A stretch of DNA of 34,346 bases from a virus (lineage: Duplodnaviria > Caudoviricetes), in IMG/VR virus record IMGVR_UViG_3300027769_000079, positions 1 through 34,346 of that record. One strand, 5' to 3'. Both the position numbers and the translations under genes were made by a program. The notes under the pieces are model-generated. The model ran no database searches. It was not told the origin of the DNA and worked only from the letters and a program-made list of their open reading frames with translations. Positions 4,273 to 26,157 of the stretch are shown piece by piece (the first letter of the stretch is position 1; the number at the start of each line of letters is the position of its first letter).

Positions 4273-4605
4273 TTGGCAACAACAGTATATGATGTAGAAG
4301 AGATTGAACTACAAAGCGGAGCTAAAGTAAAGCTCAAGCCATTATCAATCAAGCAATTAAGAAAGTTTATGGAAGTAATTAAGAAAGTTCAAGACGCAGA
4401 AGACGAAGCCGCAACACTTGGAATTTTAGTTGAAGCATGTGGAGTAGCGCTAGAAACTCAACTGCCAGACCTAGTTGCTGACCTTGACAAACTTGAAGAT
4501 GCATTGGATGTTCCAACTATTAATAGAATCCTTGAAGTTTGCGGAGGAATTAAGATGGACGACCCAAACCTAATAGCGGCAGCGGTACTGGCTGGCCAGA
4601 ACTAG
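4273..4605 (+). CDS. Tail assembly chaperone (gpG-like, short form)
   Basis: TTG start after AAGGAGG, 110 aa, between major tail and TMP genes. Confidence 0.8.
   Translation: MATTVYDVEEIELQSGAKVKLKPLSIKQLRKFMEVIKKVQDAEDEAATLGILVEACGVALETQLPDLVADLDKLEDALDVPTINRILEVCGGIKMDDPNLIAAAVLAGQN
4563..4569 (+). other. Programmed -1 ribosomal frameshift slippery site C CCA AAC
   Basis: In-phase X XXY YYZ heptamer (codons GAC CCA AAC). The -1 frame is closed at TAA 4551-4553 and open from 4554 to 4940. Confidence 0.8.
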
Positions 4606-4940
4606 ATTTAGCCGCTTTAGAAGGTCAAGTTTTTCTTCTAGGTCACTGGAAGAATTACGAAGAACTAGAAGAAAGTTTATCGCTGCCAGAATTGATTCAA
4701 ACAATTACAGCAATAAATGAAAAAGAGCACAACCAAAGAAAGTTTGCAGCATCACTAAAGGGAATACAGTTAGATGATGATGTGGAAGAAAAAGAAAAAG
4801 GTTCTACCTTTGAAGATATCCAAAGAAGAGCTCTTGGAATTAAAGCATCAGCAGATGATGTCGTTAGTTTGCAAGGACCCTTCGCAGCACAAGCTGGATT
4901 TGGAATCGGAGCAGGATTAGGATACTCTAGGAGTAATTAG
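4569..4940 (+). CDS. Tail assembly chaperone frameshift extension (gpGT-like C-terminal part)
   Basis: The -1 frame reads PNSGSGTGWPELDLAALEGQVFLLGHWKNYEELEESLSLPELIQTITAINEKE... to TAG 4940. It includes the 4692..4940 ORF, which has no evident SD of its own. Confidence 0.8.
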   Translation, partial: PNSGSGTGWPELDLAALEGQVFLLGHWKNYEELEESLSLPELIQTITAINEKEHNQRKFAASLKGIQLDDDVEEKEKGSTFEDIQRRALGIKASADDVVSLQGPFAAQAGFGIGAGLGYSRSN

Positions 4941-7900
4941 TGGCTGACGAACAAATTGTAACCAGCATAGTCGCCAAAGCCGACTTGTCTAGCCTTGTGT
5001 CTGAAGTACACAGGGCTAGTTCTAGTCTCCAACAATTACAAAGAGAGCTGCTTGCATCAAACAAAGCAATATCTTCTTCTACAAAATTAGCAAATAATTT
5101 ATTTAGAGATACATTAACTGGAAGCGGACAGTTCTCAAGCCACTTTGTAAACCTTAATTCTGATGTAGATAAGTTTGGTAAAAATTTAGATTCAGGCAGA
5201 TTAAAGCTTAAGAACTATTTCCAAACATTTAGAGAACACGCCACTACTCAAAAGGGCATGATCAGGGAGCTTGCCAAAGAGCAGGTAATGCTTCAAAACT
5301 CAGTACTTCAGCCGCTAGGTAGAAATGCTCAAGGCTTAATGCAGTACAATGTTATGATTCCTAGAGGACTAGATGCTATAGCAAATAGCGGAAAGTTAGC
5401 TCGAATGGAAATGCAGATTATGAATCGTGCATTATCCGAAGGAGCAGGTTCTTTAATTAACTGGGGTAAGAATACTCAGTGGGCTGGTAGACAGCTAACA
5501 GTAGGTCTAACTGTTCCAATGACTATGTTCGGTGCCGCAGCTGGAAAAGCTTTTAGAGAAGCAGATGCTGAACTAGTTAGATTGACAAAAGTTTATGGTG
5601 GCCTAGCTGCAACCTCAGCAAGTGATTTAAAAGCTATTAGAGAAGAAGTTGTTGAAACGGCAAAAGTTTTATCTAAAACAATGGGTGCATCTTTTAAAGA
5701 TACTATTGCATTGGGTGCTGATATCGCAGCAACAGGACAAACTGGAAATGAGCTTCTAGGATCTATTGCAGAAACAACAAGGCTTGCAGTACTTGGTGAA
5801 GTTGATAGACAAGATGCAATGAAAGCAACGTTATCTATTCAAACAGCATTTAAACAAAATACTCAAGAACTTACTGAATCAATTAACTTCCTTAACGCAG
5901 TTGAAAACCAAACCTCAACAACTCTTAATGACCTGGTAGAAGCAATTCCAAAAGCTGGGCCAGTAATTCAGCAACTAGGCGGAGATGTTAAAGATCTGGC
6001 TTTATATTTAACAGCAATGAGAGAAGGCGGTATTAGCGCATCAGAAGGTGCAAACGCACTGAAGTCTGGACTAGCCTCTTTGATTAACCCAACAAAACAA
6101 ACTGTCGGAATGATGTCGGATTTTGGAATTGATGTAATGGGAATGGTTGCTAGAAATACTGGCGATACAACTGGACTTCTAATGGATTTGCAAAAAGCAT
6201 TAGACTCACTTGATCCATTAAGCAAAGCAAGAGCAATGGAACAAATGTTTGGAAAGTTTCAGTTTGCAAGAATGAGCGCACTACTTAATAACTTAGGAAA
6301 ACAGGGAAGCCAGACGCTTCAAGTTTTAGATTTAATGAAAGCGAGCACAGCAGATCTTGCAGATGTAGCAAGCCGAGAATTAAAAATGGTTACAGAGTCT
6401 GCATCTGGTAAATATAAAAGAGCTATTGAAGGTCTTAAAGCAGAGCTTGCAGATGTTGGAGAAGAGTTCTTAGGAGTTGCAACTAAGCTTATAACCGCAG
6501 CGTCAAAAATATTAGATTTCTTTACTAGATTACCAGACCCAATCAAAAAAGGATTAACATTCCTTGCTGGGTTTACTGCATTAGTCGGACCACTTATTAT
6601 GTTAACTGGTGTACTTGCAAACTTCTTTGGTTATATAACTAAGGGTGTTGTTCAGTTAAGAGCATTCTTCATGAAAGCAAATGGCTGGAAGATGCTTACC
6701 CCAGAAATTATTGCTGCTGAAAAAGCAGCTCTTATGGTTGAGAATGCATTCTACTCAGATGCAGCAGCAGCTCAAGTTCTTCACAATGCTCTACAAAAAC
6801 TTGTTTTAGATTATCAAAATCTCCAAGCTGCATCTATGAAAAATGCAGTACCAGTTAATCCAGGAGTAAGCACAGTTGCTGGTTCACCAGTAATGGTTGG
6901 CGGAAGAAGAGTCGTTGATCCTAACGATCCATATGTTGGAGACCCTAATACTAGAGCCATGTCTCATATTAGACCAAGAGATATAAATAACCCAGCAACA
7001 ATATTTGGCGGTGTACCAGGAGCAATTCCAGTTAATAGAGGAATATCAAGAACTCCTCAAATGTATATGCAAGATAGACTTCCAAACATTGAAGGATTAA
7101 CAAGCGTAAAGGGAATATCAACAGGAATTGTTTCAGGTGAAGCAGCTAAATTCCATGCGCTGATGGCAACACTAGGAATGCAAACAGAGCAAGAAGTTGC
7201 TACATTAAAGAAAACTATTGCAATGGGCGGAACAGTTAGCAGAGAGCTTCTAGACACATTTGATGACATACTTCCAATAACTCAAAGATTTGCAGAGAGT
7301 GCAGCAACACAGTCAGCTTTAATTGTTCAGCAAATGAGAAATGCCGAAATAACTGTTGATCAAGCAAAAGCAAGGATACTTGCACTTAATGCACAAATAG
7401 AAACAGATATGGGATCAGCAGTAAGCATGTATGCTGCTGGACGAGGAAGAACAATTGATTTAACAAGAGCTCCAATGATGGATCAACCAGTTGTTGACGC
7501 TAATGGACAATTTACACTTAGAGATTTGTATAAGAAGAAAGCAAATGCTTCTGTTATGGAAGAGTTTGGAAGACTTCGCGGCGTAAGAACATTTGGAGCA
7601 CCTTATAGTATTCAGACAACTAGAATGCCTAAATTTAATATTGGTGGAGATGTAGAGTCATTTGGTCCAGGAAAGACTATGGTGTCTGGGCCATCTTCAA
7701 TTAACTATGATGACAGACTGGGAAGCGTTCCTCTAGGAGGGTATGTTTTAAATCAGCAAGCTTCGATGGATCCAGCAAATGCTGCATTAGTTGAGATGGC
7801 TCCGTCTACCTACTTAAATAATGGTGGAAACATTACTGCAGCGCTTACCCCACGGGAAGTCGTTTTTGGCCCTGAAATTCAAAGAATGCCTGAGCTTTAT

Positions 7901-10900
7901 GCAGCAGTAGATGCAGCCAACAACGGATATAGTTTTGGCGGGCAGATCATGCGTGGCATTAATTCATACGGAAAAGAAATGTCTAAGTCTGCTAAGGCTA
8001 GAATGAAAGAAGAAAACTTTAAAAGACAGTATAGAGAGTATCTAAAGTTTATCAATAACCCAAGATACGAAGATGATATAAGAATAAGAATGATCATGCT
8101 TGACGCAGCTGAATTATCTTATGAGCGTAATTTGCCAATTGATAAAGCTATAAATATTGCAACAAGTAACTTTGATTTAGCTAAAGCCCAATCTGGTGGA
8201 AACGATGAGAATTTTGTAAAAATAAGAATTAAGCAAGTGCAGGGGCTAGAAAGAGACGGCATGGTTCCCCGTGTTAAAGATGCAGAAAATTCTCCAAGAA
8301 GCGGTAGCAAAGCTTTAAATTATCAATTAAATGACGTTAGAGAAGCAATGCTAAAGAATAAAAAATTTGCTGGTGTGCATGATCTTATATCAGCAGTTGC
8401 TCCAACAACATTTTTAAATGACGACGGTTCTCCATCTATTAAAGGCTTGCACGATAAGGCACATTTTAGACGTAAAGATCTAGTTGGATATACAACTAGT
8501 GGGTACATGGGAGTTGCTGCTGTATTGCCTTCTGGTATAAATAATATCATGAGCATACTTGAGGGAATAGGTTTATCAAGAGATGTTTTAAATTTAAGTG
8601 CAGATGATGCAAGAGAAAACCTCGCAGTAGCATTAAAGAAAACAGGTTTAGACAAGCTTGCAAACGTAGATGACATATATACAGCTTTGCAAGATGATGG
8701 ATTATTTAAGAGTAAGGCTCAGATTGCATCTGGAAATGTGGTAAGGGCAAATAAGGATCAAAGAAAATCTTTAAGCATGCTTTTAGAAGCTGCAGCAAAA
8801 AGATCAAGGTGGGTATTTGCTGGAAGGCCTCCAAGACCAATGCTTGTAGCGGGAGCATACAATAAGGGCGGAATGATTCCAGGAGGATCAATATCTAGAA
8901 GTAGATCTAACTATGGAAACATATCACCACTATTAAAATTAATAGCACCAGATAAGCAGCTAAAGATCTTGCAACAAGCTCGTGAAATGTCAAAGGCTAC
9001 AGCAACTGGATCTTATAAGGACATGCCTCCTGTTAAATATGGACACATGGTTACCCCAAGCTCTGGAATGAGTTATCCGATACCTGGTGTTTCTGGCTTG
9101 TACAAAGATAGTGATGGTCGACTTAAGTTCTTTAAGGGTGTTCCAAATGAGATATCTGCCAGGGCTGAAGTGTATGGAACCAGAATGGCTAGAGAAGTAT
9201 TTGGTCTTGATGCTCCTGAGCAAACAATTAAAACAATAGCAAACCCATTAGACCCAACTGGAAAATCAAAGCTACTTGGTGTTGAATCCCCGTTTGATAA
9301 AAAGTTTACTACTGGTGGAACAGTCTTTTCAGAAGATGAAATGATTAGGCAAACAATTGCATCTTTAGTTATGAATAATAAAGATTTATCTCCAAGCAAT
9401 GTCTACGGAAATGTTTTAGCAGATGTCGGAGCAGCAGGAGTATTCTCTAAAGCCTCAGCTAACACAGCACACGCAGACTCTCTTCCTTCTATGATAGATC
9501 AAGCTATGATAAATCTACTTGGAGTTAAGGGCGGAGCTAGAAAAGACTTTGCAGTAAATACTGCTCCAATTGCTGCAGGAATGACAGCTAAGCAGTATAA
9601 CAGAAAAATAAAATCCGCAATGAAAAAAATGCATCCAAAACTTATTAAGTTTGTTGCAACGTTGCCAAGAGAAGACAGAGCTCCATATATCAAATTGCTA
9701 CAAAGATTTGAACAGGGCATGGATGATGCAACGGACTTCGGTCCGCTGCATGCAGTTCATGTTGCAGCTAAAAGAAATAGCGGAGGCCCAATTGGTGGAG
9801 GCCCAGTTAGATCAGGAAGATATGCCTATGGCGCTAAGAATAAAAAGGGTTCACAGAGGTCAGGAAACCCAGCTAAAAGAGCTCAGGATGAAAGATCCAG
9901 AGCGGCAAGAGCTGCCTCCTATAGCACTCCATCTGGTTCTGGCTATACAGCTTCAGATAATCCTCAGATGCAAGTGCAAAGAGCTCCTTATGTTGGTGGA
10001 TCTGGAATTTCTGGAAACGCATTTGGGGCAATTCAAAATCAACAATCTCAGCAGTATATTAACGCATTGCAAGTTTCTCAAATTGGTCAGCTTCCAGCAG
10101 GCATATCAAGAGCCTTTGATTCTTTAACTAAAACAATTGTATTAAAAACAACAGGGTTAAGATATGGAATTACAAGTTCTGTTCCTTATATTAATGAAGC
10201 TTACTCTTCTTTTACAAGAGGAATAATAAATTCTTCAAAACAGCAATCTGCAAAACTTTCTAACTATGTACAAACGCAGACAAGGGATTTAAAAGCAGGC
10301 ATATTAAGAGAGCAAGCAGTCAGAACAAATGCAGCATATCCAGGTATGAATATGCCAGTGTCTATGTTTGGTCCTGGAATGGTAGGAGAATGGCAAGATA
10401 TTGGACAAGATGGAATCAGAAGTCGTAAGGTAGGAGCACTCGGATATAGACAACGCGAGTACATGCTTCCTGACGGAACCATCCTTGATTCAAATGCTGC
10501 TAAAGCAAAAGGAATTTCAGCTCCTAGAGGAGGAATGGGAATAGGCGCCCAGATGGGCATCGGTATGGCTGGTAACATGGCTGGAATGTACTTGATGCAA
10601 CAACAAGAAATATTTGGAATGAAAGGGTCAAACGTAGGACTTGGCGTAATGGCTGCATCCAGCATAGCTCCAATGGTTCCTTATGCAAGAATGGGAAAGG
10701 CAGCCAAAGACGCTAAGAATTACGTAGCAGCGTTAATCGCAGCAGGTCTTACAGCTAAAGAAGTTATTTCTGCGCTTCTTGCCAAAGGATTAAGCATAGC
10801 AAAAATGTTGGGCTGGGTTGGTAAGGTCGTAGCTGTTGTAGCAAGTTTAGCTATGGCTTATAAGAATGTTAAGGATCGACAGCAAGATGCTGCCATAAGC

Positions 10901-13900
10901 CTTTCTACAACAGAAAAAGCTGCAGAACAAGCTGGATTTAAGTATGTAAGCCTAACGGACAAAATTCAAACATATTTAGATAAACAAAAATTAGCAGCAG
11001 AATCAGCAAAAACAGGATCAACAGCTTCATTTTCAATGCCTGGTATTCCTAGATCTGTAGAGGACATGAAGAAGGCTAAGAAAGAGGGCGAAGGTCTTAA
11101 AGATCTAATTGAATCTCTTAACCGAGCAGCCGTCGGAGAAGAAACTCAAATGATGATTAACAACCAAAAAGCACAAATGGTTGCAGCTGGAATGAGCATT
11201 GAAGAGGCAAACAGAAAAATTTACGGTGCTTTGGCAAATAGCAATAAAGCTCAACAAGCATACAAATATCTAGCAGATGTTCAATTTGGAGGAATTAAAG
11301 ACAAGGCTTCTGCCGCACAAGTTGCAGTTGGAAATTTAGTTTCAGTATTGGCTAACCCAAGCTCCACAGGACAAGAAATTTCATATGGGTTTGAGGGTCT
11401 TATTAATACATTTGATGCAGCAACATCTAGTCTTATAGGTACAAAAGATGCTATGGGAAATGTTATAGATGAGTATGAAGCTTATGGAATTGTTATGTCT
11501 TCTGCAGAATCCAAGTTTCCATCTTTTGGAAATGAGCCAATAGGTACAGAATCTTTTAGAGCGCTTTCAGAAGCTCAGCCCTTGCTAGCTGATATTTCAA
11601 ATAAATCTGATAGCATAAAAGGAATATTGGCAAAATGGAAACTATTTACTTCTGGAATAAATATAGATCTTAAAAATATTGACTCTACTTTAGCAATTAA
11701 GCTAGCTGGATTTACTCAGGCAATTGGAACAGGAATTTCTGAGCTAACCGCTGCTGCTGATAATGCAACTACATACGGAGCAACTGGAGCAGCACTAGCT
11801 AAATTACAAAAAGTAATTTCTGCAACTTCTGCTGCCTCACAAAGAGCAGCAGCTGCCTCTCAAAGAAGCGCACAAGAAGAGCTAAAATTAATTGCTAAAA
11901 AAATTAAGCTTATTGATGATGAAAAGAATAAAAAGTTAGAATCTTTAAGAGCAACTCAAGACGCATCTAATTACGCACTAGAGTTACAAAAACTTCAGAT
12001 ACAATATCAAGATGCCTTGTCTCGTGGAGATATGGCTGCTGCAAACAGAGCTCAACTAGAGATAGATCAGCTTACATCAAATAGACAATCTGAATTGGCT
12101 CAAAAAGCAATAGAAGATGCGGCAGCAAGAGCTAAGGCTCCACTAGAAGCAGATGCTTTAGCAATTTCTAATGCACAAGATCGAGCAGCAGCATCAGCTG
12201 CAGCAGGTCAAGATAATGCTGCGGTAGCAGGTGAGATTACTGCTACAATTCAAAAGCTACAAACAAGATATAATGATCTTACAACAATGGCACTCAATGC
12301 AAAAGTTCTTCCAGAAAAAGAAAGATTGGCTCAAGAGTCTGAGGTTAGAAGACAACTTATTATACTTGTTCAGGAAATGCAGAAAGCTGGTACTGGATCT
12401 AGCCTGCTTGCTAAAACAGTAAGAGATGCATTCCCAGGATACTTTGATGCAAATGGAAAACCATTAGCTCCAGTTTCAACATTTACTGGATCTCCAAGAG
12501 GATTTAACCCTGATGGCACACCAATTCTTTCAACAAACACTGTAACCAATAACAGCGCACTAACTCAATTTAATAAAGATATTGCAGCTGTAGAAAAACT
12601 AGCTTTAGGAATTACAGGCGGAATGACTATTAAGCAATTAGCTGCAGACATTGCTAAAAGCCTAGGTGTTAGTGATATTAGAGCTAAGAATCCTATTGGT
12701 TCAGGAACTTCAACTTCAACAAAAATTGCTGCAATAACTGCAAAAGATGGAAATGCAGCAGGATCTGCTGCTTTAAAATTGGGTTCTCAAACAAGACAAT
12801 TTACTTTACCAGATGATCCTTATAGAAAGTACTCAGTATTTACATATAACGGAAAGACATATGCTATAGATCCAATTAGCGGATCGATATTTAATTTTGA
12901 TTCTAGCAACAACATATTAGGATCTGTAGTTAAAGACAGAAAAAAAATGTATACTGGTGGAAAAGTTTCTGGTCCAGGAACTGCAACATCAGATTCAATT
13001 CCAGCAATGCTTTCAGATGGAGAATATGTATTTAGTGCAAAAGCTGTAGATGCCGCTGGAGGACCAGATGTTGTTGACAACTGGCACAAAGCACTTAGAA
13101 GAGCAGATGGTGGACCAGTCTACCCTTCATGGAAAAAGCCAAAGTCTGCATACAACTCTAAGAATCAACCTACTGGAAGTCCTTACGGAAGATACTGGGG
13201 AGAATTAGAAAGACTATATCAAAGCTCACCAATCGGTTTTGATAAAAATGGAAAGCCTATATTTAATAATGCTGGAAAAGATCCATGGGGCGGAGTAGAG
13301 ATACCAGGACTTCCATTTAGTGGCAAGGTGGGACAGTTCTCAGATTACTGGCATCAGCTAGCAGAGCAACTAAGAAAGTCTAGCGGTCCTGGAATGGGCA
13401 TCGATAAGTCTACGCCACCACTAGTTGGATCGGGTGCATCTGCTTGGACTGGAGGCTTACTAGGAGGCGGCGGAGGCGGCATGCTTGGATATGCAGATGG
13501 AGGCCTGGTTAAGGGACAATCCGCATGGTCTAAGGTTATGCACACTGCAATGAAGGCGATAGACCCATTTAAATTTGGTAAACATAGTTTAGGATATAAT
13601 TTCTTAGGCGGAAAAGAAATTGCAAATGTATTTTCTGGAACTGGGAAAAAGTCAGACTACCTATCTGCAGCTCTAGCACCACTTGGAGGATTTGGAAGAG
13701 GGGCAGCAAAAGCACCAGGTGCTATATCAAAACTTACATCTGAGATGAAATCTTTCCATATGTCAGATATTGATTCTAAGGCCATGAATGCTTTATCAAA
13801 TATGGATCTATCCTCAATTAGAATTCCAGAAACAGGTATTAGCTTTAGTCCAGCATCAGCTAAAGCTGGTTTAGAAGCATTAAAAGAAGGGGTTACATCA

Positions 13901-16195
13901 TCCTCTGCTTGGGAAATTGTTCAAGCACAAAGAGAAACATTATTAAAGAATAAATATCCAAAAGTTGATCTATCTGATGTAGCAAAATTTAATGAGTATT
14001 ACGCAAAAGAATTTTACGGCTTGCTTCCAGATGATTCTATTAAATTATTTAAGGGAGTAAGAAGCACAATAGGAGGCGCTTGGAGAACTGGAGAAAAAGA
14101 TCTAGCAACTTATTTCTCCACTAACCCACATGTAGCCGCCCTATACAGTGCAATGATAGGCAAAGCAAAGCTTGGCGATGAACTTCCAATGTTTGCAATT
14201 GATAGAAGGATATCTGATCTTAGAAATTTCTTGGGTGAAGGTGCTGTAAGAAATGGAAATGCACAGGGAAGCATGGAGTTTCCACAACTTCTTGGAGGGA
14301 AAGATTTATCAGATGTTCTTCCTAGTATGTATTCTTTGCCAGGACAAGTTTATGGTCAGATGTTTGGTGGAGCAGCAACATCATTAACAAAAATAAAAAA
14401 TTTGTGGCCAAAAGGTTTCCACGAAGGTGGTTGGGTGCACGCACATCCTCATGAGACCTCATGGAAACAGCATGTTCCAAATTATGAAAGCAGTGGAGGA
14501 CCAGGCTCTTACAATTCATCATTAGGTAAAGGCATGTTTGATGGATTCTCCATACCCTGGCTAGATTCTTTAGGTGTTAAAGGAATACACCAAACCTTTA
14601 ATAAAATTTTTCAAGGTGGAAAAAATAAAGGTATAAATGATGCTTACTCATCTTCTCCAAATAAAGGAGACTATGCAAATGCAGCTTTATTCCCTCTCAA
14701 CTTTGCTGGAATGGGAATAGGCAAAAAATTTGCGTCAATGGGAATGCGGCAAAACCTTGCTAATCTTCTGGGAGGAACAAAGCTCCCAGGCCAAATACCA
14801 AATCAAATTTATGAAAGCGCAATAGAAAAGGGTATAAGGCTAGAAAAAGGCGAAACTGGAGTAAATGAAACCTATCGCGCAATTTTAGACGGAGTTAGTG
14901 GTTTCTATAAACCTCAACTTGGAAACATGGAAACCAAAAGAGAAATGTTTGGCTCTATATTTTCTAGGGCACTCGGACTTCTTGCCCCTGCTAATGTACC
15001 AGTTGTTACAGGAAACTTCTTGAGACCAGGTGGAATATTTAGTCCAGATGTGGCAGCTCAGGGTGGTTCACTTTTAAAAAATATAAAAGGATCTACTACT
15101 GGTATATTTGGAGAGTATGATAAGCTTTCATCTGTTGAGGAGGCTATTTCAAGCGGGTATAGAGCAGCAATGATGTCTGCTATGAGATATGTAGATGGTC
15201 ATGATGGAAATTTAGTATTAAATCCAATCACAAAACAGCCAGGTCTTATAGATTTTGGAATGATTTTAGATTTTTATCCAAAAGGAGCTGGAAGCTTCAT
15301 CCCCTCCATGTTTTCGCCACTAAGACAACACGTTCCAAATTTAGTTGATGCAGTTGCTGACCCAAAAAGACAAGCATTTTTTGAGGGTTTGCTAAAAGCA
15401 AAAGATGTATTGTCTGGCTTGTCTAGATCAGACATTAAGGATATGTTAAAATCTGCTGGATATAAAGGAATAGATCTTAATAAAAAATTAAAAATTGTAA
15501 CAAATAGCATTAAGGATACAGTTAATGCAATGCCATCTGCAGTTGATGACGCTCTATTTGATGTACCAGATGCTCCATCGTGGCCTAGCAATGCCATGAT
15601 TGGTCCTGATGGTAAGATTACATTAGGTAAAGGCAAAAAGGGATTACAGCCTAATATCAGCGCACCATCAATAAAGGGATTCCCATCATTTGACACCCTA
15701 TTCAAAACACCAAAGGGATTCCCATCTATTAGCAGCTTGCCAAATTCCATTAAAAATGTACGCAATCTGTGGAGCACCCCAAAAGAAGTAACAGGTACTG
15801 GATGGAGTGACGTAGCAGGAAAAATAATATTTGACAGCAGTACAATTAACCCAGTGGTTAAGAATATACGCAAGCTGTGGAATGCTAAAGGATTCTCCGA
15901 AGGTGGACCAGCAAATGCTTTATCAAACCTTGGAGTCCCAATGTTTGAAGATGGAATTAATATGGTTCCTGCAAATATGCTGGCGCTGCTTCATAAAAAT
16001 GAAGCAGTTGTTCCAGCTAACATGAACCCATTTAATCCAAATGCATCAGCGGCTGTATCTGGTTCAGTGTATAATATTAATGTAGAATTAAATGGAACAA
16101 CAGTGACGGCAAAAGATGTTGCACTAGAAATACGTAATGAGATGAGAATTAAAGAAATGGCAGCGGGAGTAAATAGAACGGTGGGCAGATCATGA
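4940..16195 (+). CDS. Giant tape measure protein (3751 aa) with embedded kinase-like and ART-like cargo domains
   Basis: Directly after the chaperones. TP901-type TMP region (FLNAVENQTSTTLNDLVEAIPKAGPV...GANALKSGLASL), hydrophobic segments, Ala-rich coiled coils and the C-terminal GPGTATSDSIPAMLSDGEYV motif. Confidence 0.93.
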   Translation: MADEQIVTSIVAKADLSSLVSEVHRASSSLQQLQRELLASNKAISSSTKLANNLFRDTLTGSGQFSSHFVNLNSDVDKFGKNLDSGRLKLKNYFQTFREHATTQKGMIRELAKEQVMLQNSVLQPLGRNAQGLMQYNVMIPRGLDAIANSGKLARMEMQIMNRALSEGAGSLINWGKNTQWAGRQLTVGLTVPMTMFGAAAGKAFREADAELVRLTKVYGGLAATSASDLKAIREEVVETAKVLSKTMGASFKDTIALGADIAATGQTGNELLGSIAETTRLAVLGEVDRQDAMKATLSIQTAFKQNTQELTESINFLNAVENQTSTTLNDLVEAIPKAGPVIQQLGGDVKDLALYLTAMREGGISASEGANALKSGLASLINPTKQTVGMMSDFGIDVMGMVARNTGDTTGLLMDLQKALDSLDPLSKARAMEQMFGKFQFARMSALLNNLGKQGSQTLQVLDLMKASTADLADVASRELKMVTESASGKYKRAIEGLKAELADVGEEFLGVATKLITAASKILDFFTRLPDPIKKGLTFLAGFTALVGPLIMLTGVLANFFGYITKGVVQLRAFFMKANGWKMLTPEIIAAEKAALMVENAFYSDAAAAQVLHNALQKLVLDYQNLQAASMKNAVPVNPGVSTVAGSPVMVGGRRVVDPNDPYVGDPNTRAMSHIRPRDINNPATIFGGVPGAIPVNRGISRTPQMYMQDRLPNIEGLTSVKGISTGIVSGEAAKFHALMATLGMQTEQEVATLKKTIAMGGTVSRELLDTFDDILPITQRFAESAATQSALIVQQMRNAEITVDQAKARILALNAQIETDMGSAVSMYAAGRGRTIDLTRAPMMDQPVVDANGQFTLRDLYKKKANASVMEEFGRLRGVRTFGAPYSIQTTRMPKFNIGGDVESFGPGKTMVSGPSSINYDDRLGSVPLGGYVLNQQASMDPANAALVEMAPSTYLNNGGNITAALTPREVVFGPEIQRMPELYAAVDAANNGYSFGGQIMRGINSYGKEMSKSAKARMKEENFKRQYREYLKFINNPRYEDDIRIRMIMLDAAELSYERNLPIDKAINIATSNFDLAKAQSGGNDENFVKIRIKQVQGLERDGMVPRVKDAENSPRSGSKALNYQLNDVREAMLKNKKFAGVHDLISAVAPTTFLNDDGSPSIKGLHDKAHFRRKDLVGYTTSGYMGVAAVLPSGINNIMSILEGIGLSRDVLNLSADDARENLAVALKKTGLDKLANVDDIYTALQDDGLFKSKAQIASGNVVRANKDQRKSLSMLLEAAAKRSRWVFAGRPPRPMLVAGAYNKGGMIPGGSISRSRSNYGNISPLLKLIAPDKQLKILQQAREMSKATATGSYKDMPPVKYGHMVTPSSGMSYPIPGVSGLYKDSDGRLKFFKGVPNEISARAEVYGTRMAREVFGLDAPEQTIKTIANPLDPTGKSKLLGVESPFDKKFTTGGTVFSEDEMIRQTIASLVMNNKDLSPSNVYGNVLADVGAAGVFSKASANTAHADSLPSMIDQAMINLLGVKGGARKDFAVNTAPIAAGMTAKQYNRKIKSAMKKMHPKLIKFVATLPREDRAPYIKLLQRFEQGMDDATDFGPLHAVHVAAKRNSGGPIGGGPVRSGRYAYGAKNKKGSQRSGNPAKRAQDERSRAARAASYSTPSGSGYTASDNPQMQVQRAPYVGGSGISGNAFGAIQNQQSQQYINALQVSQIGQLPAGISRAFDSLTKTIVLKTTGLRYGITSSVPYINEAYSSFTRGIINSSKQQSAKLSNYVQTQTRDLKAGILREQAVRTNAAYPGMNMPVSMFGPGMVGEWQDIGQDGIRSRKVGALGYRQREYMLPDGTILDSNAAKAKGISAPRGGMGIGAQMGIGMAGNMAGMYLMQQQEIFGMKGSNVGLGVMAASSIAPMVPYARMGKAAKDAKNYVAALIAAGLTAKEVISALLAKGLSIAKMLGWVGKVVAVVASLAMAYKNVKDRQQDAAISLSTTEKAAEQAGFKYVSLTDKIQTYLDKQKLAAESAKTGSTASFSMPGIPRSVEDMKKAKKEGEGLKDLIESLNRAAVGEETQMMINNQKAQMVAAGMSIEEANRKIYGALANSNKAQQAYKYLADVQFGGIKDKASAAQVAVGNLVSVLANPSSTGQEISYGFEGLINTFDAATSSLIGTKDAMGNVIDEYEAYGIVMSSAESKFPSFGNEPIGTESFRALSEAQPLLADISNKSDSIKGILAKWKLFTSGINIDLKNIDSTLAIKLAGFTQAIGTGISELTAAADNATTYGATGAALAKLQKVISATSAASQRAAAASQRSAQEELKLIAKKIKLIDDEKNKKLESLRATQDASNYALELQKLQIQYQDALSRGDMAAANRAQLEIDQLTSNRQSELAQKAIEDAAARAKAPLEADALAISNAQDRAAASAAAGQDNAAVAGEITATIQKLQTRYNDLTTMALNAKVLPEKERLAQESEVRRQLIILVQEMQKAGTGSSLLAKTVRDAFPGYFDANGKPLAPVSTFTGSPRGFNPDGTPILSTNTVTNNSALTQFNKDIAAVEKLALGITGGMTIKQLAADIAKSLGVSDIRAKNPIGSGTSTSTKIAAITAKDGNAAGSAALKLGSQTRQFTLPDDPYRKYSVFTYNGKTYAIDPISGSIFNFDSSNNILGSVVKDRKKMYTGGKVSGPGTATSDSIPAMLSDGEYVFSAKAVDAAGGPDVVDNWHKALRRADGGPVYPSWKKPKSAYNSKNQPTGSPYGRYWGELERLYQSSPIGFDKNGKPIFNNAGKDPWGGVEIPGLPFSGKVGQFSDYWHQLAEQLRKSSGPGMGIDKSTPPLVGSGASAWTGGLLGGGGGGMLGYADGGLVKGQSAWSKVMHTAMKAIDPFKFGKHSLGYNFLGGKEIANVFSGTGKKSDYLSAALAPLGGFGRGAAKAPGAISKLTSEMKSFHMSDIDSKAMNALSNMDLSSIRIPETGISFSPASAKAGLEALKEGVTSSSAWEIVQAQRETLLKNKYPKVDLSDVAKFNEYYAKEFYGLLPDDSIKLFKGVRSTIGGAWRTGEKDLATYFSTNPHVAALYSAMIGKAKLGDELPMFAIDRRISDLRNFLGEGAVRNGNAQGSMEFPQLLGGKDLSDVLPSMYSLPGQVYGQMFGGAATSLTKIKNLWPKGFHEGGWVHAHPHETSWKQHVPNYESSGGPGSYNSSLGKGMFDGFSIPWLDSLGVKGIHQTFNKIFQGGKNKGINDAYSSSPNKGDYANAALFPLNFAGMGIGKKFASMGMRQNLANLLGGTKLPGQIPNQIYESAIEKGIRLEKGETGVNETYRAILDGVSGFYKPQLGNMETKREMFGSIFSRALGLLAPANVPVVTGNFLRPGGIFSPDVAAQGGSLLKNIKGSTTGIFGEYDKLSSVEEAISSGYRAAMMSAMRYVDGHDGNLVLNPITKQPGLIDFGMILDFYPKGAGSFIPSMFSPLRQHVPNLVDAVADPKRQAFFEGLLKAKDVLSGLSRSDIKDMLKSAGYKGIDLNKKLKIVTNSIKDTVNAMPSAVDDALFDVPDAPSWPSNAMIGPDGKITLGKGKKGLQPNISAPSIKGFPSFDTLFKTPKGFPSISSLPNSIKNVRNLWSTPKEVTGTGWSDVAGKIIFDSSTINPVVKNIRKLWNAKGFSEGGPANALSNLGVPMFEDGINMVPANMLALLHKNEAVVPANMNPFNPNASAAVSGSVYNINVELNGTTVTAKDVALEIRNEMRIKEMAAGVNRTVGRS
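15673..15881 (+). repeat. Short direct repeats near TMP 3' end
   Basis: AAAGGGATTCCCATC exact at 15673-15687 and 15712-15726. A 24-mer with 21/24 identity at 15750-15773 and 15858-15881. Confidence 0.85.
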
Positions 16196-21270: not shown

Positions 21271-23376
21271 ATGGCTGGCAAATACGATGATTTAGGAATT
21301 ACTCAAACTAAAGACGGAGATTACTATGACGTCATTATTCCAAACTTAAATCTAAGTACAGAGTATGAGCTTCAAGTTGCTTGGGTGTATGCAGATAAAA
21401 CTTTAGGTATTAGCGAGTATTCAGACCCTTATACATTTGTAACGACAGGTGAGCAGCCATTAAATAAACCAAGATTTCTTCAATCTGATTTGACTACATC
21501 TTTAAATGCGCTTATTGTTAATTGGTCTGGGCTAGATTACCTAGGCAGCGTTTACCCAAAAAGTTTTGATAGAGTTGACATATATGTAAAAGGTGGAGAT
21601 TTTGGAAACACTTATGTTGTTGCTGGAAGCTTTAAAGAAGCTGGCAAGCAAACAATTATTGCACAGGCTGGAACATATTATGTAAAACTAAGAGCAGTAA
21701 GCAAGCTTGGAACCCCATCAGATTTTAGCGATGAGTGGTCAGCAGATACTTCTAATCCAGGAGAAGTTATTGAGCCCCCAACTCTTCCAATTGGACTAAC
21801 AGTCTCAAGCACTGCATTTGGAATTTCTGTAAACTGGAATGGTGCATACCAAGCAAATGATCCTTTTTCTGGATTTAAAACAATTGAGGTTTATGCAACA
21901 ACAAATGCAACATTAGGCGCTAGTACAACTACAGCATTTGCAAGTACAGCACTGGTAGCAAATTTAACAGTAACTCAATCTTTAAATAGACAAAATGTTG
22001 GAATTGATAATCTCAAGCAGGCACTAGGACTTGCAACATCTGAAGCAGTTTATGCAGCAAATGTTTATTTTTATTACATAGCATACAACAAAAATAACGA
22101 GCCTTATAAAGTTGGCGGTGTTGCAACATACACTCGGATTAGTGCAACTCCTCTGTCTCCAACCAAAGCTAACTTAATTGATTTAGAAAACGGAATTATA
22201 TCAATTGAAAACTTAGTTGCTGGAAATGGAAAGTTTACTTCATGGCTAAGAGCAGGATCAGATGTTGGTGGAGCACGAATAGAATTAAATGGTGGGAGCA
22301 GCTTTGCAGATGGGGCAACTGGAAGATCAATACTAGATGGATTTACAGTATATAGTTCTGGCAATAGTCCAATATTTAGAGCAAGCACAACAAGCGGAAC
22401 CGTAACTTTTGGTGGGTATACACCATCAGATATTGCTACAATACAATCAACAGCTACATCAAAAACAAAAATATTTAGGCAAGCAACAACCCCAACTTCA
22501 ATTACAATCGGAGATTTATGGATTAATACTGCAGACACTACAATTGGTAGAAACACAATATATGTTGCTACAATGGTTGGAGCAAACTCAATAACAACCG
22601 ATCCAACACCTGGTTGGAATGTTTCAAAAGATAGCGACATAACTACAGCTTTATTAAAAGCTGGCGGGTTTGATTCAAATGGAAATATTAATAGAGCCAT
22701 TCAGATTCCAACTCCAAATGGCACTTCAGCAGGATCAATTTATTCTGTAAAAAGCTCTTATACAGATACAACATCAGGATGGTTCCTTGGATGGGATGGA
22801 ACCTCTGTAAATAGCTCTCCAGTAATACACATAGGAAATTTAAATAACTGGTTTAAGTGGACAGGTTCTGCAATAGATGTTAAAGGATCATTTACTACAA
22901 CTGGAACCCAGTCTGGCCTGCTTGGTGGCACTACTAATTTAACTACAACTTTAAGCGCTGGTAAATTATCATTATCTTCAGATCAGACAACTGGTTTTAT
23001 GGATTGGGCAAATGCTGCTGTGCTAGGAGTTTCAAGCACAGACTCTAAAGCAACTATTTCCCCTGCTGGAATAGCAATCTCACATACTGGATTGTCTTCT
23101 GGGTTTTCCATTTCTTATGTTCCAGGTGGCGGATACGCAAACATTATTGTGTCTGGGGGCGGTTCTCCACTAATTAGATGGGTTAATTATCAAGGCAGCG
23201 AAAGAACTGCAAACTTAATGCTAGGGGATATTGCAAATAGACCACTAGTTGTTACAGATCAAGGCCTACAGTATCTTGGAGCACAAAATTATTATACAAA
23301 TTCCTCTTCAGCAACCATGGCTACGGCTACATGGGGAGTAGATGGAGATTTAGCTTTTAGTACGAATGCGAATTAG
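21271..23376 (+). CDS. Tail fibre/minor tail protein with FN3-like domains
   Basis: 701 aa. FN3-like motifs (NLNLSTEYELQV; GTYYVKLRAVSKLGTPSDFS), KIFRQATTPTSITIGDLWINT motif, Ser/Thr/Gly-rich. Confidence 0.7.
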   Translation: MAGKYDDLGITQTKDGDYYDVIIPNLNLSTEYELQVAWVYADKTLGISEYSDPYTFVTTGEQPLNKPRFLQSDLTTSLNALIVNWSGLDYLGSVYPKSFDRVDIYVKGGDFGNTYVVAGSFKEAGKQTIIAQAGTYYVKLRAVSKLGTPSDFSDEWSADTSNPGEVIEPPTLPIGLTVSSTAFGISVNWNGAYQANDPFSGFKTIEVYATTNATLGASTTTAFASTALVANLTVTQSLNRQNVGIDNLKQALGLATSEAVYAANVYFYYIAYNKNNEPYKVGGVATYTRISATPLSPTKANLIDLENGIISIENLVAGNGKFTSWLRAGSDVGGARIELNGGSSFADGATGRSILDGFTVYSSGNSPIFRASTTSGTVTFGGYTPSDIATIQSTATSKTKIFRQATTPTSITIGDLWINTADTTIGRNTIYVATMVGANSITTDPTPGWNVSKDSDITTALLKAGGFDSNGNINRAIQIPTPNGTSAGSIYSVKSSYTDTTSGWFLGWDGTSVNSSPVIHIGNLNNWFKWTGSAIDVKGSFTTTGTQSGLLGGTTNLTTTLSAGKLSLSSDQTTGFMDWANAAVLGVSSTDSKATISPAGIAISHTGLSSGFSISYVPGGGYANIIVSGGGSPLIRWVNYQGSERTANLMLGDIANRPLVVTDQGLQYLGAQNYYTNSSSATMATATWGVDGDLAFSTNAN

Positions 23377-23379
23377 CAT

Positions 23380-26157
23380 ATGCCCATATATAGAAAATCA
23401 GGAGGCTCCTGGACAACCATTAGGAGTATTTATAGAAAATCTGGTGGAGTATGGACATCTATAGAAAATGTTTATAGAAAAGCAGGCGGTGTATGGAATA
23501 GCGTATTCCTAAGAAACAATTCTCCAGTAATACAAAATAGAGTTACTATAGCATCTGATGTTTCTTATATAGGAGATGGTCAGTTTGCTACTTTAACTGG
23601 AAGAAATTACTCATGGACTCCAACATCTGGATTAACATTGACTTATCGTTTTGAAAAATCTACAACTATAGATTTTGCTTCTGTAACACTAATATCGTCT
23701 GGAAATATATCAAACCCAGCTTCTGGATCATCTAATACAGTAACTCAAGCAGTATATCCAGCTGCATTTTCACAGACTGATATGTACTTTAGGTTTAAAG
23801 TTACTGCCGTAAATTCTTCTGGAACAACTGTATCCGTAAGTGATGTAGTAGGTGTTTCATATTATGGAACACCAGTTCCACAATCCCCTTACCCTGAAAT
23901 TACTGGCAGCACTACAGTAGGAAATAATGCATTTGGAAATATTGGTGTGTGGACTAATTCTCCAACATCTTATAGCTATAGATGGTATTTTATGAGTGGG
24001 GCAACAAGCTACCCACTTACATTTGAGCAGTCAAGATCTGTTTCAAATAAAAGTTTATCTGGGTTTACAGCCACTATTATAACTTCTACAAACCATGGAT
24101 ATAAAACATCAGATGTAGTTTCAATCTCATCTGTTGACTCCTTGCTTAATAAATCAACTGCAACAATTTTTTCTGTTACAAATAACTCTTTTTCGTATAC
24201 TATTACTACACCAACTGCTTGGGTGGATGCTGGCACATCGTATTCTTCTGGAACATATGTATCTTATTTAGGAAATGTTTACCAAGCAATTAACTCAATA
24301 TCTTCAGTTTCAGTATACAATGGCGGAACAATATACTCATCTGGAGCAATTGTATTTGCAAACAGTAATAGATACCAGTCAAGGGTTAGTAATAATATAG
24401 GCAACTCAGTTACGAATACAACATACTGGACCTCACTTGGTAGCTATACACCAACTGGACCACAATGGACACTGCAAAATTTTTCAAACACTGCTTCATC
24501 TGGAACAACAACTGGTCCAAATTATTATGAAGGGACATCTTCATATTCAACATCATTTTTATTAACAGTTCCAGCAACTGATTATAAGTCTACATTAAAC
24601 ATGATAGACAAAGCTTTGTATTTTGCGGTAAAAGCATATAATCCAGCAACCTCTTCTCCATCAGAATATTCAAATTATAAATTGGTATACGGATTTCCAG
24701 TAATTAATTTAGGTGCCACAACAATAGCAGACACATCTTTTTCTATAGCTTATACATCATCATATATGACTAAGTATATAGTTGATGCAAAATTTGGAGG
24801 TGTATCTGTAAGTACATATCCAAAAACAATAACCTCGCCATCAAGCCCAATACAAGTAACTGGTTTATCTGCTGGAAGAAACTATGATATTTATGTTACT
24901 CCTTACAATGGAGAAAATACAGCAGGAACAATAAAGTCAAAAAACGAAACTACTACATCTGCACCTACAACTCCTACTATAATAACAGTAACTTCTGGAT
25001 ATCCAAACGATGCAGTATCAGTTTCTTTTTCTGGAGGAAGCGGTCCATTTTATCAAATGTATTGGACAGCATCTGCAACAGCACCATCTGGCATTACAAA
25101 CCCAGATGCATCTGGAAGTTCATCACCTTTAACAGATGCTTCTGGTCCATCATTAGCTGGCACATACTATATGTATGTTAGATCAACTAAGGTGCAAGGC
25201 TATACAGGAATAGATTCCGCACAGGCAAGCCCTTGGAGCGCAGGAACTCAATTTATTATTAGCAATAGGCCTGCAATTGCATTTTCATACGGAGCTGCAA
25301 CATCAGCATCTGGAGGTTGGTCTGCATCTATAAATAGTGGAACTCAATCTGGAGCAGTTTACTCATTGGTATCAGTATCTGCTGGATCTGCATCGGTAAG
25401 CTCTTCAACAGGTGCAATTACTGCGTCAGGGTTGGCACCTGGACAAAGCTCTACTGTGGTAGTTAGAAAATCTGTTACTAGCTATCAAGATACAACAGCT
25501 TCAGCATCTGGAACAGCAACTAATCCTGTTTACAGTATAACATTTGATCCAAGTGGATATGTTTCTGGGCTTTCAAACACAAGAGTAACTAGCCCTACTC
25601 CAAGTACAATTAGAACTGGAACTGTTGGCCAGTCAGCTCTTGCTCCAGCCAACCCGACACCACCTTCAGGTTATACATTTGCTGGCGTTTGGAGAGATGA
25701 CTCTCCATTTAATTATGTAAACCAAGTTAACTCTGGTGGATCTTGGACTATAACTGCAACAAATAAAACATTCTATGCATACTATAATACAATTGTTCCA
25801 AATATTTCTCAAATTGTTGTAGCTGGAAATGTTACTGCTGGAGTTACATGTACTGTAACTGGAAGCAACCTAGGTTCAATAGAGTACACATTCTTTGCAA
25901 GAGATACTGCAACTTCTGCATGGGTTCAAATTTCTGCTGGAACAGCAGCACCAAGCAGCAGCACTTCTGCTACAATTGCTACAACAGGAAAAACTACTGG
26001 AGCTTTGCCAGATCAATACTACGTTCAGATGATTCCATATTTTGGGCCAAGAAGCACATCTGGTGCAAATGGTGGGACAGGAACCTCTGGAACATTAAGA
26101 AGCACAATAGGAAGTCCAAAAAACAATAACGCTGGAAGCGTTACAGTTAATTTCTAA
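23380..26157 (+). CDS. Putative receptor-binding/adhesin tail protein (Ig/FN3, CBM5/12-like and InlB B-repeat-like domains)
   Basis: 925 aa, very Ser/Thr-rich. VTGLSAGRNYDIYVTPYN (FN3), W..G.SYSSGTYVSYLGNVYQA (CBM5/12-like), PANPTPPSGYTFAGVW...TFYAYY (B-repeat-like). Confidence 0.7.
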   Translation: MPIYRKSGGSWTTIRSIYRKSGGVWTSIENVYRKAGGVWNSVFLRNNSPVIQNRVTIASDVSYIGDGQFATLTGRNYSWTPTSGLTLTYRFEKSTTIDFASVTLISSGNISNPASGSSNTVTQAVYPAAFSQTDMYFRFKVTAVNSSGTTVSVSDVVGVSYYGTPVPQSPYPEITGSTTVGNNAFGNIGVWTNSPTSYSYRWYFMSGATSYPLTFEQSRSVSNKSLSGFTATIITSTNHGYKTSDVVSISSVDSLLNKSTATIFSVTNNSFSYTITTPTAWVDAGTSYSSGTYVSYLGNVYQAINSISSVSVYNGGTIYSSGAIVFANSNRYQSRVSNNIGNSVTNTTYWTSLGSYTPTGPQWTLQNFSNTASSGTTTGPNYYEGTSSYSTSFLLTVPATDYKSTLNMIDKALYFAVKAYNPATSSPSEYSNYKLVYGFPVINLGATTIADTSFSIAYTSSYMTKYIVDAKFGGVSVSTYPKTITSPSSPIQVTGLSAGRNYDIYVTPYNGENTAGTIKSKNETTTSAPTTPTIITVTSGYPNDAVSVSFSGGSGPFYQMYWTASATAPSGITNPDASGSSSPLTDASGPSLAGTYYMYVRSTKVQGYTGIDSAQASPWSAGTQFIISNRPAIAFSYGAATSASGGWSASINSGTQSGAVYSLVSVSAGSASVSSSTGAITASGLAPGQSSTVVVRKSVTSYQDTTASASGTATNPVYSITFDPSGYVSGLSNTRVTSPTPSTIRTGTVGQSALAPANPTPPSGYTFAGVWRDDSPFNYVNQVNSGGSWTITATNKTFYAYYNTIVPNISQIVVAGNVTAGVTCTVTGSNLGSIEYTFFARDTATSAWVQISAGTAAPSSSTSATIATTGKTTGALPDQYYVQMIPYFGPRSTSGANGGTGTSGTLRSTIGSPKNNNAGSVTVNF
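23386..23508 (+). repeat. Three tandem 14-aa (42-nt) repeats (I/V)YRK(S/A)GGxW
   Basis: IYRKSGGSWTTIRS / IYRKSGGVWTSIEN / VYRKAGGVWNSVF; TATAGAAAA recurs at 42-nt spacing. Confidence 0.9.

Follow-up and report, generated by a model that had tools for sequence, protein, structure and literature searches.

The locus analysed here raises the question of what a kinase-like domain is doing in the middle of the protein that serves a phage tail as its ruler. The window (the whole 34-kb stretch, 34,346 nt) is a virus-record fragment in which head-tail connector genes are followed by tail genes, and these by genes for DnaB, primase, SSB and DNA polymerase. The domain lies within a 3,751-aa ORF (4940..16195, + strand) that we identify as the tape measure protein (TMP) gene: PF10145 matches at aa 240-438 (Pfam, E 1e-26), 12 PHROG TMP families match the ORF, and the gene order is that of Streptomyces phage Daubenski. 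The PF10145 core, together with a position between the major tail/chaperone and minor tail genes, places the protein among the siphophage TMPs. Judging from position, the two small ORFs just upstream (4273..4940, +) probably take the place of tail assembly chaperones; they match the unknown-function PHROGs 10504 and 10474, and Daubenski has two small genes there. The nearest cultured relatives of the N-terminal part of the TMP are Streptomyces phages of 126-134 kb, at 31-34% identity; Daubenski (Stanwilliamsviridae) is one of these, and its TMP is 2,097 aa. WhiB is encoded by all five near-complete relatives that carry the domain (106-117 kb), and the host of this phage is therefore likely actinobacterial. 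A search of GTDB genomes for a prophage that would name the host returned 74 pattern hits, none of them confirmed. The domain-bearing group is well represented in IMG/VR, with 327 confirmed matches in one scan. Elsewhere in the window, GC skew goes negative at 23001-26000, inside a 925-aa ORF (23380-26157) that has no PHROG match; it is probably a tail fibre or adhesin of recent acquisition.

The earlier note had placed a divergent PI3/4-kinase/HipA-like domain at 9050..9770. The motifs it quoted and their coordinates all proved correct, in the frame of the TMP ORF; the start needs a small correction, as in our model the fold begins some 20-60 nt upstream of 9050. We map the domain to aa ~1364-1608 (9029..9763, +), its first strands being model residues 14-23, or aa 1364-1373, from nt ~9029. 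A Gly-rich loop, G1376-x-S1378 (9065..9073, +), is followed by GVSGLYKDSDGRLKFFK (aa 1383-1399), whose K1399 (9134..9136, +) is the beta3 lysine at the end of model strand 45-50. The segment ARAEVYGTRMAREVFGLDAP (aa 1407-1426) contains the alphaC glutamate E1410 (9167..9169, +), in model helix 54-69. NKDLSPSNV (aa 1480-1488) holds the catalytic loop D1482-L-S1484-P-S-N1487 (9383..9400, +), where S1484 takes the His position of HipA-type kinases. The second LADVG then supplies the DFG-like metal-binding motif D1495-V-G (9422..9430, +), eight residues past N1487. The order beta3 Lys, alphaC Glu, D-x4-N and metal-binding Asp is thus kept, and the residues fall on the expected elements of the model. 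Mis-assembly or a frameshift artefact is ruled out by the single open frame and by the same fusion in 237 proteins. At one related locus (L012) the frame is broken across the domain, which we read as a sequencing error.

A first structural model, from 18 close sequences, was discarded (catalytic loop unresolved, pLDDT 63). The AlphaFold2 model built from 75 sequences has a pLDDT of 90.7 and a pTM of 0.89. It shows a beta-sheet lobe with K at a strand end and E in the next helix, a helix that runs up to the D-x4-N loop, a hairpin of two-residue strands ahead of D1495, and five C-lobe helices after DVG (model residues 168-258). The bilobal kinase fold on which the earlier reading hinged is thus present in the predicted structure, with an N-lobe sheet plus alphaC and a helical C-lobe. 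A structure search of 48,161 chains, independent of Foldseek, bore out the assignment to the atypical PI3/4K-HipA-type fold: the top 20 rows all came from that branch (Z 8.1-11.7), with CotH at 11.7, PI4KIIalpha 10.4, MavQ 10.2, CtkA 9.9, Fam20 9.1, HipT 8.8 and HipA 8.3, while RIO (7.3) and canonical kinases (about 6) scored lower. A second look gave CtkA 11.0 (rmsd 4.3, 198 aligned), PI4KIIbeta 10.5, PI4KIIalpha 10.4 and MavQ 10.4, so that lipid kinases tie with protein kinases in Z; the CotH match has an rmsd of 4.1 over 217 aligned residues, Fam20, HipT and HipA lie at Z 8-9.5, and rmsd overall is 4-5 A. Foldseek matches to the PDB have E 2e-3 or worse and TM-scores of at most 0.43 (the best, 0.40-0.43, being CtkA and Fam20C), and all matches listed are kinases. 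Against viral models Foldseek gave 11 matches with E of 0.001 or better, including phage portal, ART and PI3/4K-annotated proteins; the phage proteins in which it detects related kinase folds are head, portal and ART fusions. In the ESM Atlas the closest clusters are unnamed phage clusters (0.96), followed by the nearest named one, with HipA_2 on 46% of its members, and a neighbour with PF00454 on 38% (both 0.92).

Sequence searches with the domain returned little. Pfam gave no match with E up to 1, including HipA_C/HipA_2, PF00454 and the CotH family PF08757, and none of these ranked within the top 25 families when 75 members were scanned; the PHROG search was blank, and PDB sequences yielded no kinase match with one sequence and two profiles. 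Uteroglobin and leucine-rich-repeat rows in the PDB search were dismissed as chance helix or Leu-Asn matches. The model supports membership of the kinase branch that holds CotH, CtkA, PI4KII, MavQ, Fam20 and HipA, in no single named family.

How far is the active site conserved? Relatives of the domain number 237 among TMP-sized proteins, 120 of them listed. In an alignment of the query with 119 close homologs, the five residues K/E/D/N/D are invariant in 120/120 rows. When 1.84 billion representatives were searched with a profile, the matches formed a closed family of 164 clusters (50%-cluster representatives); the 150 listed contain 137 full-length domains, after 13 partial ones were dropped, with 26-97% identity to the window's domain. 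In these, K1399 is kept in 135 (the other two are gaps in truncated proteins), E1410 in 137, D1482 in 136, N1487 in 137 and D1495 in 137, and the spacing from N1487 to D1495 is eight in every member. In the Gly-rich loop G1376 is present in 135/135 and S1378 in 134/135 non-gap rows. Only 12 of the 274 columns reach at least 99% across the 137 members, and these include K/E/D/N/D, G1376 and S1378. Invariance in the close set and near-invariance in the broad one argue that the motif set did not arise by chance. The ratio dN/dS against seven close loci is 0.10-0.20; the domain is under purifying selection. The family also has invariants of its own (Q1471, S1450 and A1505-S1506), and R/D, found in 130 of the 137 members, is replaced by M1478/N1480 in the clade of the window.

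The TMP core is matched by 113 of the 150 listed clusters; among the 114 with a domain start no earlier than residue 700, the figure is 109. A separate search gave 14 shorter matches: 13 were on contigs under 10 kb, and one was on a 28-kb contig whose length equals that of the frameshifted locus L012. Neither that search nor the 1.84 billion representatives contained a stand-alone form at the distances such searches reach, which very distant forms could escape. On the sequences searched, the family is confined to TMP-sized phage proteins; two queries against 50,697 annotated phages returned no relative, and the domain is in no cultured phage. Where the kinase sits in the TMP can differ: the usual start is aa 750-1400, and in two members it lies near the C-terminus (aa 2212 in P0226, aa 2860 in P0249), which suggests that the cassette is movable within the protein.

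The earlier note's remark that the usual His is replaced stands, with S1484 in the window. Across the 137 members this column reads S in 54, Q in 31, G in 23, A in 14, K in 9, H in 4, and T and R in one each, with some 31 parsimony changes on a quick FastTree tree. The alignment register here is fixed by the four members that read D-L-H-x-G-N and by those with D-L-K-x-x-N. HipT carries His212 two residues past its catalytic Asp210 (PMC10627512), the register of D1482-x-S1484. A dead copy created by His loss was ruled out, as the column is freely variable across the family; this variability points instead to substrate-side variation, and the position is probably a variable, substrate-side one.

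We next consider how the domain behaves as a unit. Retrieval by TMP core gave 78 loci. Short length or an early stop removed 18, and of the 60 related TMPs legible over a sufficient length 57 carry the kinase module. The three that do not (L148, L149 and L152) are 2,110 aa long and probably represent one lineage; they serve as deletion controls supplied by nature. Together with the cultured phages that have no such domain, they suggest that the kinase is dispensable for the ruler role. On TMP backbones of 97% identity, the kinase may share 92-94% or just about 51% of its residues with that of the window; P0086 and P0088 pair a 97% core with a 49-50% kinase, and P0036 a 76% core with a 73% one. 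The module just upstream (aa 1000-1300) and the kinase reassort independently: identity goes from 18-30% to 90-94% in L094 and from 77-88% to 53-54% in L092. The switches lie near xxGG at aa 997, 1307 and 1612. Kinase and core similarity are nevertheless correlated (Spearman 0.42, 107 proteins), so plain descent explains part of the pattern.

The xxGG motif recurs in the window's TMP at aa 899, 997, 1307, 1612, 2670, 2721, 2851, 3160 and 3652, a repeated joint that splits the protein into modules. The window's kinase is flanked by the short motif only, upstream at 8858..8878 (+; aa 1307, in the 100-aa bin where identity to relatives switches) and downstream at 9773..9793 (+; aa 1612, from the motif scan and an identity switch); the sole full joint-model match in the window is the long joint at aa 2659-2731 (12914-13132, +). 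Among 124 family representatives, 71 have a longer joint module no more than 60 aa upstream of the kinase and 43 have one as close downstream; random placement would give 7.7 and 9.8. The long joint also matches 1,020 annotated phage records, mostly TMPs among the 30 matches listed. TMP length in the group ranges from about 2,100 to 4,576 aa, which would mean very different tail lengths if all TMP residues measure. We predict from the model that a swappable module of about 250 residues inside the TMP has an unusually compact atypical kinase fold with its five core catalytic residues kept.

Other segments of the window's TMP, and of its relatives, also look like cargo. The module upstream of the kinase (aa 1004-1300; 7949-8839, +) has an H-D-K-A-H motif and is matched in 81 of 278 collected proteins, with ESM Atlas scores all below 0.8. 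A second, unrelated-looking kinase cassette (aa 3290-3545; 14807-15574, +) keeps D-x-H-x-x-N and DFG and has a weak Pfam match to ABC1; it occurs in 13 of the collected proteins including the window's own, and in 2-3 of 119 close TMPs. Profile comparison of the two kinases aligned the N-lobe only (probability 61%, E 8e-5), with the catalytic motifs unaligned. The segment at aa 2990-3150 (13907-14389, +) has an aromatic-R/K strand, S-T and a distal E, an order that we take to recall ADP-ribosyltransferases; it has no Pfam or PHROG match and no relative among the 278 collected proteins except the window's own. In other members (P0013, P0071, P0116, P0179, P0210 and P0249) the TMP carries CHAP, LysM, OmpA-like or M23 domains.

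Could such a domain reach the cytoplasm, where an ATP-dependent enzyme would need to be? A Kyte-Doolittle scan marks a possible membrane span upstream of the kinase at aa 537-566 (6548..6637, +) and weaker hydrophobic segments downstream at aa 1929-1974 (10724..10861, +). Of 107 TMPs, 104 have a hydrophobic segment ahead of the kinase and 69 have segments on both sides. By hydropathy, the position of the kinase after the first hydrophobic segment would allow a cytoplasmic location. One simple topology cannot place all cargo, because in P0013 CHAP cell-wall domains and a second kinase share the same C-terminal region. With a tail lumen about 4 nm wide, there should be no room for three to six 250-residue domains in folded form, from which we infer that the kinase travels unfolded and regains its fold once ejected. 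TMPs are described as filaments in the tail lumen that are ejected to form the entry channel, as in the trans-envelope channel of lambda gpH* (PMC12617516).

From these elements we propose the following course of events. The nascent TMP would be held extended while the tail is built and then in the tube, keeping the kinase off in the producing cell, and the loop Ser1378 may be a second off-switch; by analogy with Ser150 of HipA and Ser57/59 of HipT (PMC10627512), it is a candidate autophosphorylation site. On ejection, the segment past the first hydrophobic stretch would pass into the cytoplasm, where it could stay tethered to the DNA channel or be cut free at the xxGG joints; T5 pb2 is cleaved after R1127, separating its enzyme (PMC10038345). 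The kinase would then refold, bind Mg-ATP and, ahead of phage gene expression, phosphorylate Ser/Thr residues in at least one host protein at the entry site, the most plausible targets being early defence or expression machinery. Host counter-pressure would in turn drive allele exchange. A precedent is the T7 kinase, which modifies host proteins (PMC8008677, PMC5512222). Judging from the model, it is likely that the phage injects a ready-made kinase into its host; the entire chain, from a virion-borne kinase ejected with the TMP to phosphorylation of host proteins at entry, we rate at a little under an even chance. The presence of the domain in 57 of 60 related TMPs counts against an injected effector, as it exceeds what is typical of an optional one.

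The same near-fixed presence would fit a constant substrate, and a possible objection is that the injected enzyme instead phosphorylates a lipid or envelope precursor: tethered to the channel, it would work at the inner leaflet on phosphatidylinositol, on PIMs or on a precursor of the cell wall, stabilising the pore or blocking superinfection. Actinobacteria make phosphatidylinositol, the WhiB genes make such a host likely, the Z scores of PI4KIIalpha/beta and MavQ (10.2-10.5) are level with those of the best protein kinases, and a hydrophobic segment almost always precedes the domain. However, the exchange of alleles at about 50% identity and the roughly 31 changes at the His/Lys/Ser position fit better with a protein target that changes, and lead us to favour protein over lipid. 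Lipid-kinase catalytic loops carry His, which only 4 of the 137 members have, and the aligned PI4KII and MavQ ranges (about 345 residues) exceed the domain by about 100 residues. We therefore consider a lipid target unlikely. Less likely still is that the kinase works on phage proteins or within the producing cell, phosphorylating the TMP or tail proteins during assembly or host targets late in infection, so that its location in the TMP would be a matter of timing and not of delivery. The best fold match, CotH (a Bacillus kinase by its PDB title), is a spore-coat assembly kinase; S1378 is near-invariant; and HipA-like kinases in late-gene regions of Gratiaviridae are read as late-acting (PMC8008677). 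Against this, some TMPs of the same group and those of all cultured relatives do without the domain, and a late enzyme would need no fusion in mid-ruler, yet a stand-alone form was not found.

The weak global similarity (TM at most 0.43), the very short beta7-beta8 hairpin with its constant eight-residue N-to-D spacing, the family-specific invariants and the lack of a fixed residue at the His/Lys position could also indicate a kinase-fold enzyme of other chemistry or an ATP-binding pseudokinase, acting in nucleotidyl transfer, ATP hydrolysis or as a defence decoy. Pseudokinases usually lose at least one of the core residues, whereas here the full K/E/D/N/D set and the Gly-rich loop stand in canonical order, and we regard this explanation as improbable, ranking it below action in the producing cell. 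A kinase-derived spacer kept for tail length alone might be suggested by the wide range of TMP lengths and the free gain and loss of cassettes, but the near-invariance of five active-site residues in members as distant as 26% identity, a pLDDT of 90.7 and the low dN/dS leave it hardly credible. The reading in which an injected kinase acts on host proteins remains the one we prefer.

How does this domain compare with known systems? CotH (5jda) and CtkA (3akk/3akl) are its best structural matches and cover nearly the whole domain, at 8-12% identity; the phage domain differs in being shorter, internal to a TMP and without a PF08757 match. Relative to PI4KII and Legionella MavQ it is shorter, as noted above, and PF00454 is likewise missing. 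HipA and HipT belong to the same fold branch and conserve a Ser in the Gly-rich loop (PMC8262856, PMC10627512), whereas HipT has 23 residues from D210 to D233 where the phage domain has 13, and a His that the phage family does not conserve (PMC10627512). HipA-homologous kinases (PMC8262856) are characterised by a catalytic D-x-H, where the window has S1484, and by an adjacent antitoxin gene, of which there is none among the tail-region neighbours of this TMP-embedded domain.

TMP-borne enzymes used at entry, as proposed here, are represented by the active virion RNA polymerase of P23-45 gp96 (PMC10770324) and the muralytic domain of T5 pb2 (PMC10038345); the former is N-terminal and the latter, a wall enzyme, C-terminal, whereas the window's kinase is mid-protein, among several exchangeable cassettes. 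Polyvalent and MuF/portal-fused effectors similarly put several host-modifying domains on one virion protein, with a head protein rather than a TMP as the carrier (PMC5512222, PMC9503650). Such head-carried polyvalent proteins include a different kinase (PMC5512222, PMC9503650, PMC7824862), which is described as having no C-terminal subdomain (PMC5512222), unlike the five-helix C-lobe of our model. The main texts of PMC5512222 and PMC9503650 do not mention tape measures, and we found no paper in open-licence PMC and bioRxiv that reports a kinase inside a tape measure or any other tail protein. Characterised phage protein kinases are few, T7 and 933W being those named in PMC8008677. We conclude that both the kinase-fold family and its location are undescribed, that the ideas combined here are known ones, and that the fold, as a prediction, is well supported.

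More broadly, we suggest, tentatively and as a possibility more doubtful than the entry mechanism itself, that a large group of uncultured actinophages of 105-117 kb uses the TMP as a modular injection magazine, in which this minimal kinase family would be a near-universal payload, off while packed unfolded, refolding in the host within seconds and swapped as polymorphic alleles against host defence proteins. The natural His, Lys and Ser variants at a substrate-side position, in a small and well-predicted domain, may show how little an atypical kinase needs. If active, the domain would give a very common phage group a route to phosphorylate its host ahead of any phage gene expression, and it bears on whether tape measures ferry folded-on-arrival enzymes into the cytoplasm.
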